IMG/VR virus record: IMGVR_UViG_2706794664_000003
Length of the DNA: 14,378 bases
Reading direction: 5' to 3' (one strand)
Source of the DNA: a virus
Taxonomy: Duplodnaviria; Heunggongvirae; Uroviricota; Caudoviricetes
Shown here: piece by piece, positions 3,562 to 8,761 of the stretch
How the letters are laid out: the number at the start of each line of letters is the position of its first letter
Numbering within the stretch: the stretch's first letter is position 1
Position numbers and translations under genes: made by a program
The notes under the pieces: generated by a model
What the model was told of the DNA's origin: nothing
Database searches by the model: none
What the model saw: the letters and a program-made list of their open reading frames with translations, nothing else

Positions 3562-3674
3562 NNNNNNNNNNNNNNNNNNNNNNNNNNNNNNNNNNNNNNN
3601 NNNNNNNNNNNNNNNNNNNNNNNNNNNNNNNNNNNNNNNNNNNNNNNNNNNNNNNNNNNNNNNNNNNNNNNNNN
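3562..3674. other. assembly gap (113 N)
   Basis: Run of n characters; frames cannot be carried across it. Confidence 1.
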
Positions 3675-5182: not shown

Positions 5183-5213
5183 ATCCCGCCCCCCGACAGA
5201 CCTGTGCTATCGG

Positions 5214-5248
5214 AAAGAAAAAAGGCCATCAGCAAAACTCTGATGGCC
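5214..5248 (-). terminator. intrinsic terminator candidate 30 nt upstream of the holin start
   Basis: 9-bp stem GGCCATCAG/CTGATGGCC (5224-5232 / 5240-5248) with 7-nt loop, followed on the minus strand by TTTTTTCTTTCC. Confidence 0.5.
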
Positions 5249-5862
5249 TGAATCACCTTTACCAATATTGTATGAAAAAACACGCACGACTAATTGACAA
5301 TAATTTTCATTTCCATTAAAAAAGATCGCGTAGCATTCTTAATTCATGAGGAACTTTACCCGCCAGCAATCTGAGTAGCGAAAGCTGTTCATCCCCAATG
5401 TTTTTGCTGGCGGGTCCTTTTTTCTACGGTCCTCCTCCCCGGAGGGGGGCATTTCATTATTTTTCTAATCGTTACTGGTGAGAAGGCGGAAGAAAAAGCC
5501 AGTTCTTCGCCCCTAAATAACAGCATGATTCCAGTCCATGCAAAATCTGATTTCCAGCTCACACATACCGAGCGCTGTACAAAAAACCGCCAGCCAAGGC
5601 AGTTAAGAGTGTGTTCCCGGGGTTTGCTTAGAATATTTTGTAAGTTGTCCGAAGAGATATTTACAACACCAGAATGATGAATCATCAGTCCCCTGCCAGA
5701 GGTTCACTACGTAACCTGACCGACAATGCACCATTCTGGTGCTGAAAAAAGAGCACTGGAACTGCAACAAAACAACATCACAGAACAGGAGATGGTAAGG
5801 AGTCAGACATTCCCACACAATATTGTGTCAGTGCAAATAACAACCTTCGTCTCAAATCTCGC

Positions 5863-5937
<75 letters not shown>

Positions 5938-5940
5938 ATA

Positions 5941-6016
<76 letters not shown>

Positions 6017-6018
6017 GC

Positions 6019-6095
6019 TGGCCCACCACCGAGGACTCGAACCTCGCACCGTCAACTTAGAAGGTTGATGCTCTATCCGGATGAGCTAGTGGTGG
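6019..6095 (-). tRNA. tRNA-Arg (anticodon TCT)
   Basis: 77 nt; acceptor CCACCAC/GTGGTGG, anticodon stem TCAAC/GTTGA, loop CTTCTAA, T stem CGAGG/CCTCG, CCA. Confidence 0.8.
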
Positions 6096-6096
6096 T

Positions 6097-6173
6097 TGGT
6101 GGCCCTTGCTGGACTTGAACCAGCGACCTGGCGATTATGAGTCGCTCGCTCTGACCAACTGAGCTAAAGGGCC
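6097..6173 (-). tRNA. tRNA with CAT anticodon (Ile2-type or Met)
   Basis: 77 nt; acceptor GGCCCTT/AAGGGCC, anticodon loop CTCATAA, T stem GCTGG/CCAGC, CCA; resembles E. coli ileX-type tRNA as recalled; first anticodon-stem pair is A-C. Confidence 0.65.
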
Positions 6174-7841: not shown

Positions 7842-8129
7842 TCAATCCTGCTCAAGATTGTAGATGAGTTTATTCTTCAGCAAAAGCAGAAAACCAGCCT
7901 TAAAACCAATCTCTTTCAAAACCCGTAATGATGTGACAAATTCGTCCTCACGCAAAATAAAACCGTCCGTCAGAAGTCCATTACAAAAATAAAATAACAC
8001 AGCACCGCTCTTCCTTTGTTGAGATTGCAAACATCTAATGCGGCAATGGCTGACAATCGCTCCATTCTCAACGCGCACAGCATAGAGGCCATTTTCACTA
8101 AAAATTTCACGCAATTCTTCGATTTTCAT
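7842..8129 (-). CDS. hypothetical protein on an AT-rich segment
   Basis: 95-aa ORF MKIEELREIFSENGLYAVRVENGAIVSHCRIRC... with GGAAGGA upstream of the ATG; surrounding DNA is visibly AT-richer than flanking phage genes. Confidence 0.4.
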   Translation of the reverse strand: MKIEELREIFSENGLYAVRVENGAIVSHCRIRCLQSQQRKSGAVLFYFCNGLLTDGFILREDEFVTSLRVLKEIGFKAGFLLLLKNKLIYNLEQD

Positions 8130-8250
8130 CTTCAGAATCCTTCCAGATAAATAGCTCTCCCCTGTTCGGGGTCCATCCCTCTTCTCCCTGCGCGCTACTT
8201 AAGTGAGTCGATTCTATCTGCGAAGGTGCGCGAATCAAATTCACCGGAAA

Positions 8251-8303
8251 TAAACAACAAAAAACCCGCCGAAACGCTGAGAGATCACAGCGATGGGCGG
8301 GTT
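8251..8303 (-). terminator. intrinsic terminator candidate downstream of hok
   Basis: Two-tier hairpin (outer 8263-8270 / 8296-8303, inner CGCTG/CAGCG) followed on the minus strand by TTTTGTTGTTT. Confidence 0.45.
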
Positions 8304-8378
8304 AAGTGCGGGTGCGTTGAGGATGCCTGACACATCAGAGGTGGGCGGGGATGGGATCAGCTCCCCGCCCGGTCACTC

Positions 8379-8534
8379 TTACTTCCTGGATTCGTAGTCT
8401 ACGAAGACAGCGACCTCCGTCTGGCCGGTTCGGATTCGTACCTCACAGAGGTCTTTCCTCGTTACCAGTGCCGTCACTATGACGGTTAAACAGATGACGA
8501 TCAGGGCGATTAACATCGCCTTTTGCTGCTTCAT
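8379..8534 (-). CDS. hok: Hok/Gef-family type I toxin
   Basis: 51 aa MKQQKAMLIALIVICLTVIVTALVTRKDLCEVRIRTGQTEVAVFVDYESRK; single transmembrane helix and conserved CEVRIRTGQTEVA motif; near-identical to Hok/Gef toxins as recalled. Confidence 0.8.
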   Translation of the reverse strand: MKQQKAMLIALIVICLTVIVTALVTRKDLCEVRIRTGQTEVAVFVDYESRK

Positions 8535-8591
8535 AGCCTGCTTCTCCTTGCCTTTCGGCATGTAAGAGGCTAACCTACATGTGCAAAGCAT
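8379..8591 (-). CDS. mok: mok-like reading frame (in-frame upstream extension of hok)
   Basis: 70-aa ORF from the ATG at 8591 continuing in frame into hok, the arrangement recalled for chromosomal mok/hok loci. Confidence 0.5.
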   Translation of the reverse strand: MLCTCRLASYMPKGKEKQAMKQQKAMLIALIVICLTVIVTALVTRKDLCEVRIRTGQTEVAVFVDYESRK

Positions 8592-8761
8592 GAAATTGGC
8601 CTCAGATTAATGTTAAGCGTCTTGCCGGACGCGTAATGTTAACTGGGGCTTTTCTCTATCTGCCTTTTGGTGTTCATGCCTGAAGCAGATAGCCTCAAGC
8701 ACCCGCAGTCATTCTACTTACCTCGCCAATATGAAATCAATCAGAAAGGTGCCCCATAAAA

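Follow-up and report, generated by a model that had tools for sequence, protein, structure and literature searches.

The stretch of viral DNA analyzed here, 14,378 nt from a member of Caudoviricetes (IMG/VR record IMGVR_UViG_2706794664_000003; hereafter the window, at its full length), appears to carry a complete hok/mok/sok type I toxin-antitoxin (TA) module of the hokW-sokW prophage subtype, a reading to which we assign a probability of roughly 85%. The original prediction, made from the sequence alone, had proposed a hok/mok type I locus at this place, and all the features it listed were recovered at the positions it gave, with Rfam, Pfam and folding scores far above chance. Its interval of 8251-8700 contains these features but is slightly short, since the hok transcript start lies at 8704 and the promoter extends to 8740. 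The finding itself is already known, namely a hokW-sokW-type module in a lambdoid prophage, and identical sequences are present in RefSeq. Our contribution is the full delimitation of mok, Sok, the translational activator element (tac), the ucb and dcb boxes, the fold-back inhibition box (fbi) and the road-block hairpin at a locus where only the coding sequence (CDS) of hok has been annotated.

The toxin gene hok (8534..8379, minus strand) encodes 51 amino acids and is preceded by a Shine-Dalgarno (SD) sequence, AAGGAG, at 8549-8544. Its open reading frame (ORF) matched the Pfam family PF01848 (HOK_GEF) with 81.1 bits against a cut-off of 22 (E = 4e-23), and the full 42-position profile was covered. 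The predicted protein is 98% identical to HokW, 90% to K-12 HokD, 78% to the hokC product and 43% to the Hok of plasmid R1; relative to HokW, a proven toxin, 50 of 51 residues are the same and E50R is the sole difference. The profile match and the identity to HokW bear out the earlier assignment of 8379-8534 to the Hok family.

The assignment to the hokW-sokW subtype is based on an alignment of the window with phages 933W and HannyBb and with K-12 hokC. The closest characterized relative is hokW-mokW-sokW of the Stx2 phages 933W and Sp5 of E. coli O157:H7, which shares 92% DNA identity over 8724..8300 of the window. The subtype is recognized by high identity over the whole module together with a Sok stem-loop extended by 18 nt; here the identity of 92% covers 80% of the query, and the 18-nt extension is common to the window, 933W and HannyBb and absent from hokC. 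The features of a K-12-type hokD, a relic of the relBE-hokD arrangement, were not found: seven motif checks gave 1111111 for the window versus 0000011 for K-12 hokD.

The upstream reading frame mok (8591..8379, minus strand), taken from the ORF list, comprises 70 codons in frame with hok, with its ATG at 8591, which is 57 nt upstream of that of hok, and an SD sequence, GAGG, at 8603-8600. By alignment and coordinate mapping, the start codons of mokW and mokC both fall on 8591 and those of hokW and hokC on 8534, so that the in-frame mok-like extension proposed earlier coincides with the mapped starts of its relatives. The 70-codon frame is kept in 93 of the 109 relatives sampled from viral contigs; in 14 of these loci, the mok/hok frame ends after 25 codons. 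The rule that an out-of-frame mok defines the family was rejected, as mok is in frame (57 nt) in an R1-type plasmid locus, hokC and hokW and is offset by 58 nt in hokB; the coordinates of the Nucleic Acids Research paper imply 58 nt for R1, which is out of frame in authentic R1. Because the frame relation (57 or 58 nt) varies within the hok/sok family, an in-frame mok "extension" is normal and not diagnostic, and only translation of mok as far as the hok SD matters.

We also located the module in bacterial genomes. A 531-nt region was 100% identical to two E. coli chromosomes, in which the ORF is annotated as "type I toxin-antitoxin system toxin HokD", and several independent genomes (FDAARGOS_943 and 944, ECMA0423, Shigella flexneri SFBU1023 and two IMG/VR contigs) share this exact sequence. 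The leader of the window is identical in S. flexneri SFBU1023 and E. coli ECMA0423, and over long sections the window matches the prophages of these strains at 99-99.8% identity. Copies with 90-92% identity occur in most of 5,426 complete E. coli genomes; the median number of places per genome is two, and the highest is nine. All seven motif checks were positive in 107 of 176 loci, the class to which the window belongs. Decayed versions of the module coexist in the population, with relE-fused, leaderless K-12-type hokD copies in 6 of the 176 loci.

The gene order of the RefSeq twin is that of a lambdoid prophage: cI-like and Cro-like genes, YdaT, replication genes, QueH, hok, DUF1367, YbcO, a Q-like antiterminator, four tRNAs, holin and lysozyme. 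The hok gene thus stands between QueH and DUF1367 in the nin region, co-directional with the early-right (cro-to-Q) operon. RefSeq annotates only the hok CDS at this locus, as hokD. Because the window has tac, ucb, mok and sok, all of which are absent from K-12 hokD, this name reflects protein similarity and not locus architecture, and it is somewhat misleading.

Opposite the mok initiation region, an antisense RNA gene is predicted on the plus strand, with promoter, 5' tail, stem-loop and U-rich end all present. Its putative promoter (8548..8576), read from the sequence, consists of a -35 box TTGCCT (8548-8553), a 17-nt spacer and a -10 box TAACCT (8571-8576), and both hexamers are identical to those of sokW in 933W. 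In sokW, a "pro-less" mutant made with primers YO-421/422 destroys the -10 box and abolishes protection (PMC8621323); on the hok strand, these primers replace TAGGTTA by CCGGCTC, and the replaced site corresponds exactly to the TAACCT box of the window. The plus-strand promoter TTGCCT-17-TAACCT proposed in the original prediction therefore agrees with sokW in both hexamers, and its -10 element is the box hit by that mutant.

The Sok RNA itself would span 8583..8659 on the plus strand, with a 5' tail GCAAAGCAU, a long stem-loop and a U-rich 3' end that likely falls at 8653-8659. Annotated sokW maps to plus-strand positions 8583-8653 and annotated sokC to 8583-8659, and the start at 8583 lies 7 nt past the TAACCT box. 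These mappings sharpen the earlier suggestion of a plus-strand antisense RNA around 8580-8650. The predicted fold comprises a 9-nt 5' tail, the long stem-loop and the U-rich end (-30.2 kcal/mol, z = -5.0). A short hairpin previously noticed at 8616-8631 turned out to be the tip of this stem-loop, formed by GCGTC/GACGC at 8617-8632.

The strand of the antitoxin deserves attention, because Rfam family RF01794, labeled "sok antitoxin (CssrC)", matched the minus strand at 8704..8529 with 117 bits (gathering score 59, E = 1.2e-26). Taken at face value, this label would place the antitoxin RNA on the minus strand over the same interval. We rejected this after testing the model against loci whose sokC, sokB and sokW are annotated independently: in K-12 hokC, K-12 hokB and 933W, the match falls on the strand opposite the annotated Sok and spans the mRNA from its 5' end to the hok AUG. 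The score was 118 bits on hokC, and the model also matched the R1-type locus with 87 bits. Since it lies opposite Sok in all three test loci, RF01794 represents the leader of hok mRNA, running from the tac box up to the hok AUG, and not Sok. As the experimentally tested sokW promoter also sits on the other strand, a minus-strand antitoxin has practically no chance of being correct, and Sok is placed on the plus strand. The RF01794 match is thus strong evidence for the locus but uninformative on the antitoxin strand, and automatic annotation from this family will place the antitoxin on the wrong strand.

The predicted hok mRNA carries the regulatory elements of the characterized systems, for which we used the definitions of Le Rhun et al. 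(PMC9841398) and Faridani et al. (PMC1635323). A promoter scan gave a candidate hok promoter at 8740..8711 on the minus strand (TTGATT at 8740-8735, an 18-nt spacer and TAGAAT at 8716-8711). The full-length transcript would extend over 8704..8259 (about 446 nt), with its first nucleotide at 8704, where position 1 of the Rfam model and the R1-type start align. It begins with tac (GGGUGCUUGAGG, 8704..8693), followed by ucb, an anti-SD box (AAAAGCCCCAG, 8653..8643) that is nearly invariant in relatives. The predicted Sok-target hairpin (8603..8566; -12.4 kcal/mol), defined from the Rfam alignment and from folds, has the mok SD arm GAGGC at 8603-8599, the loop CUUUGCA at 8588-8582 and the dcb arm AGCCUC at 8571-8566.

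At the 3' end, a GC-rich stem-loop (GGGCGGGG/CCCCGCCC, 8370..8343) forms in the full-length fold at the same place as the GC hairpin of the R1 type. It is followed by fbi (CCUCAACGCACCC, 8322..8310), a box whose form is present in 90 of the 109 relatives, and by a predicted rho-independent terminator (8303..8259) with an ACCCGCC/GGCGGGU stem over 8303..8264, an inserted loop of about 25 nt and a U run at 8263..8259. In characterized systems, the 3' stem-loop of processed hok mRNA serves as a road-block to 3' trimming (PMC1635323, PMC9841398). Because the hok stop codon, GC hairpin, fbi and terminator follow one another in the R1-type order, we read the hairpin at 8370..8343 as the equivalent road-block to 3' exonucleases and not as a terminator. 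The original prediction had correctly located this hairpin but called it a terminator, a role that fits neither its match to the road-block position nor the presence of fbi between it and the true terminator; its second proposal, a hairpin plus T-tract at 8251-8303, is the terminator described here (ACCCGCC/GGCGGGT at 8303..8264, T run at 8263..8259).

According to studies of these systems, tac pairs with fbi in full-length hok mRNA while ucb masks the mok SD, and once the mRNA is truncated, the partners become tac/ucb and mok SD/dcb; the nascent transcript forms a metastable 5' hairpin, and the Sok 5' tail touches the target loop first (PMC9841398, PMC1635323). Comparison of the window with the characterized loci, as the original prediction had proposed, recovered tac, ucb, dcb and fbi together with both pairings. 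The minimum free energy (MFE) fold of the full-length mRNA (-189.6 kcal/mol, z = -8.4) pairs tac (8704-8693) with fbi (8322-8310) in a 12-bp helix containing one bulge, and the mok SD (8603-8600) with ucb (8648-8645). The tac/fbi duplex has an energy of -21.5 kcal/mol, compared with -15.1 +/- 2.3 kcal/mol for shuffled tails, a value reached by 4 of 1000 shuffles. In contrast to the full-length form, the MFE fold of a 145-nt 5' fragment is the open form, with a tac/ucb stem, a Sok-body hairpin and the SD/dcb target hairpin with its loop CUUUGCA. The metastable tac hairpin appeared in folds of short nascent fragments.

Covariation supports the open form. Across 54 leaders, this structure was 91.5% paired, versus at most 50% in slid controls, and the tac/ucb helix was 99.5% paired. 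Thirteen pairs were changed on both sides, compared with 2.8 +/- 1.1 in shuffles (0/500 shuffles). When 62 unique relatives were sampled with the CDS as anchor, ucb, the mok SD, dcb and fbi were almost invariant (entropy <=0.09 bits). This sample replaced a first population sample that was anchored inside the leader and therefore biased for leader variability.

Toxicity, Sok-dependent protection, duplex cleavage and 3' processing have been demonstrated experimentally for relatives only, namely hokW-sokW (PMC8621323) and R1 (PMC9841398, PMC1635323). Takada et al. reported that HokW is toxic and that sokW RNA expressed from its own promoter protects, in part requiring RNase III and Hfq; after mitomycin C, hokW-sokW also accelerates lysis and raises phage release twofold (PMC8621323). 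For the window, transcription, processing, toxicity and biological role are read from the sequence elements, their complementarities and their homology to these tested loci, and the following scheme would apply. The weak minus-strand promoter would produce the hok mRNA of about 446 nt, in which the 5' tac is tied up with the 3' fbi and the mok ribosome-binding site is covered by ucb, making the mRNA stable, untranslated and invisible to Sok. Slow 3' trimming to the road-block hairpin would strip fbi, and the 5' end would then refold into the tac/ucb and mok SD/dcb pairings, which would expose mok for translation, needed for translation of hok, and create the Sok target hairpin. The short, unstable plus-strand Sok (8583 to about 8655) would dock by its 5' tail on the target loop (8588-8582), cover the mok SD and AUG and trigger cleavage by RNase III. 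Once Sok synthesis stops, Hok would be made and the inner membrane depolarized, as occurs in Sp5 upon prophage induction. A trigger by read-through of the early-right operon on induction, head-on to the sok promoter, is plausible because the locus is co-directional inside that operon, although this is speculation.

Whether the module is intact or a relic was left undecided in the original prediction. The regulatory boxes are all intact, and hok, mok, tac, ucb, dcb, fbi and the sok promoter showed no disabling change, the kind of evidence that the prediction had said would count against it; the module is probably active. Several observations weigh on the other side. One caveat lies in the hok promoter spacer (window 8717-8735), from which 10 bp (CGGTAGTTAA, between GGTAA repeats) are deleted relative to the closest relatives. 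The -10 box TAGAAT is conserved in all relatives, but because of the deletion the -35 box is unlike that of the closest relatives: their TTGGCG box is displaced to 7 bp from the -10 box, leaving TTGATT at a suboptimal spacing of 18 nt. This allele is rare, occurring in only 3 of about 200 sampled loci. The terminator loop in turn carries the unusual insertion of about 25 nt (window 8271-8296), which forms its own CGCUG/CAGCG mini-stem where relatives carry a TTCG tetraloop, and which was found in 4 sampled loci including the window. A simple consensus terminator scan found no terminators and did not call the hok hairpin; since the terminator loop exceeds the 8-nt limit of the scan, the terminator was assigned by folding instead. 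In addition, when 3'-truncated transcripts were folded with ViennaRNA, the MFE structures retained the ucb/SD pairing together with the 5' metastable hairpin and failed to reach the open form, so thermodynamic prediction alone does not demonstrate the switch. Finally, the invariance of tac in the CDS-anchored sample was partly forced by the selection filter.

The promoter deletion and the terminator insertion could mean that the locus is a silent relic, in which hok mRNA is not usefully made or properly terminated and only Sok is expressed, with no toxin to control. Inactivated hok loci are indeed common: K-12 hokC is interrupted by IS186, K-12 hokD is leaderless and the mok/hok frame is truncated in 14 of 109 relatives. 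However, the replacement TTGATT, 18 bp from the conserved TAGAAT, gives 9 of 12 consensus matches, at least as many as the hexamers of the relatives, whose -35 boxes match at 3-4 of 6 positions. Read-through from the upstream QueH gene would also be possible because the terminator scan, with its 8-nt loop limit, found no terminator between QueH and hok. The maintenance of the identical sequence in several independent genomes likewise speaks against decay, and with the regulatory boxes undamaged we regard a silent relic as unlikely and an active module as the better reading.

In addition to the conserved boxes, the population comparison revealed a short region of strong divergence. Four of the five highest-entropy transcript positions in the CDS-anchored sample are 8585-8588, in the target loop and complementary to Sok nt 1-6. 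At least 17 target-hairpin alleles were found; the hairpin is kept in all 17, with similar stabilities of -9.5 to -13.5 kcal/mol. A YUNR U-turn in the target loop was considered as a required feature and not used, as the window has UUUG but YUNR lies in the MFE loop of only 10 of the 17 alleles. A ucb...dcb pattern scan of one genome per species gave 89 stretches distributed over Enterobacterales, and a genome often held several of them.

We then compared paralogues within genomes by pairwise alignment and third-codon positions, using 17 close pairs (not all independent) with a pooled hok CDS divergence of 3.0%. Co-residence was established from the genome collection, since the IMG/VR sample had no recurring genome identifier among its listed contigs. 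In the 8 nt after the mok ATG, 42-44% of positions differed, compared with 2.0% in the Sok body and dcb-hok region and 4.6% at hok third-codon positions (odds ratio 16). A loop allele shared within a genome was found in 0 of the 17 close pairs, and in 0 of 34 when distant pairs were included. The pattern recurs in Shigella/E. coli prophages, Pseudocitrobacter, Photorhabdus, Rouxiella, Serratia, Ewingella and Erwinia. S. flexneri SFBU1023 holds the window allele, the 933W allele and a third allele (Sok tails GCAAAG, GUUCAG and GUGAGA), and its predicted tail-target duplexes ranged from -15.9 to -17.6 kcal/mol for cognate pairs and from -2.1 to -8.8 kcal/mol for non-cognate pairs, in which 2-3 of the first 6 nt match.

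This divergence suggests selection for orthogonal, non-cross-reacting Sok/hok pairs. Judging from sequence divergence and duplex energies, we give about even odds that the 6-8 nt of the target loop and Sok 5' end (8582-8589) form a hypervariable specificity determinant that differs between co-resident copies, with each Sok silencing its own hok only; the window may then carry one of at least eight loop "specificities" in the hokW/hokD prophage family. If selection against cross-talk is real, it would account for the tolerance of as many as nine hok loci in a genome and would provide a simple sequence rule predicting which copies cross-protect. A TA cross-talk review, the survey of Fozo et al. 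and the open literature that we searched gave no description of this pattern for hok/sok, although older subscription papers from the Gerdes laboratory may cover it. The hok/sok locus itself adds little new, and the diversification of the recognition loop is a modest lead.

Several other features of the window were recorded. A QueH epoxyqueuosine reductase gene (Pfam, 220 bits) lies at 8762-9448 on the minus strand, immediately upstream of hok, and four tRNA genes (Met/Ile-CAT, Arg-TCT, Thr-TGT and Gly-TCC) lie at 5863-6173 on the minus strand, downstream of the Q-like antiterminator; a tRNA-modification enzyme adjoining phage tRNAs may merit a look. A whole-window Rfam scan (E <= 0.1) returned only the hok leader and the four tRNAs, the matches to Plastid-ycf2 being antisense strands of these tRNAs. 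Just past the hok terminator, a second promoter-like site (8211-8238, minus strand; TTGATT-16-TAGAAT) has the same hexamers as the hok promoter, and downstream of it is an ORF of 95 amino acids (8129..7842) without a Pfam match. The roughly 680 bp that separate the tRNA cluster from the holin gene (5183-5862) have no annotated gene in the RefSeq twin, contain only unconvincing ORFs and no Rfam match, and correspond to the position where Stx phages carry stx. Masked runs of N occur at 3562-3674 (113 bases, small-terminase/HNH region) and 11037-11288 (252 bases, replication-gene region). Positions 13567-13857 match IS600-family (IS3-like) insertion sequence DNA; in the SFBU1023 and ECMA0423 prophages, this stretch sits elsewhere, beside the equivalent of window 7437, and its different places in related prophages indicate movement of the element within the prophage lineage.

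Compared with known systems, the module is most similar to hokW-sokW of 933W and Sp5, with which it shares its prophage location, the mok start and frame, the sok promoter hexamers, the 18-nt-extended Sok stem-loop and the tac, ucb, dcb and fbi boxes. It differs from 933W in the Sok 5' tail/target loop allele (GCAAAGCAUGA in the window versus GUUCAGCAUGG, with 7 of 11 positions matching), in the region upstream of the hok -10 box and in phage genome position, as well as by the changes N3C and V11M in Mok, in addition to E50R in Hok. Homology with 933W ends right after fbi, and 933W is without the ACCCGCC terminator hairpin. For the loop observation alone, an analogy is offered by the Sib/Ibs paralogues, which likewise co-occur in several copies and whose antisense RNAs tell cognate from non-cognate targets via short divergent recognition segments (PMC2943612). 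Sib/Ibs belongs to an unrelated toxin and RNA family, and discrimination is experimental there, whereas for hok/sok it is deduced from sequence divergence and duplex energies.

Among E. coli chromosomal loci, hokD (relF) of the K-12 Qin prophage resembles the module in its lambdoid prophage setting, its 90% identical Hok and an fbi-like box. K-12 hokD, however, directly follows relBE and lacks tac, ucb, mok and sok, whereas the window has all four and its upstream gene is QueH, not relE. The hokC (gef)/mokC/sokC locus has a collinear leader, mok in frame 57 nt upstream of hok and a sokC start that corresponds to 8583. Its Hok is only 78% identical, its Sok stem-loop is 18 nt shorter, and in K-12 it is cut by IS186 19 bp past the stop codon, so that fbi and the terminator are missing there.

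The paradigm of the family, hok/sok (parB) of plasmid R1, shares the order tac, ucb, mok SD, target hairpin, dcb, hok, GC road-block, fbi and terminator, as well as a mok frame of 70-71 codons that starts 19 codons before hok. R1 differs in that its Hok is only 43% identical and its locus is plasmid-borne, with a role in post-segregational killing. The fold-back pairing itself is nevertheless retained: R1 has tac GGCGCUU and fbi AAGCGCC, and the window has tac GGGUGCUU and fbi AA(C)GCACCC, a compensatory change in which a C-G pair in R1 corresponds to a U-A pair in the window.

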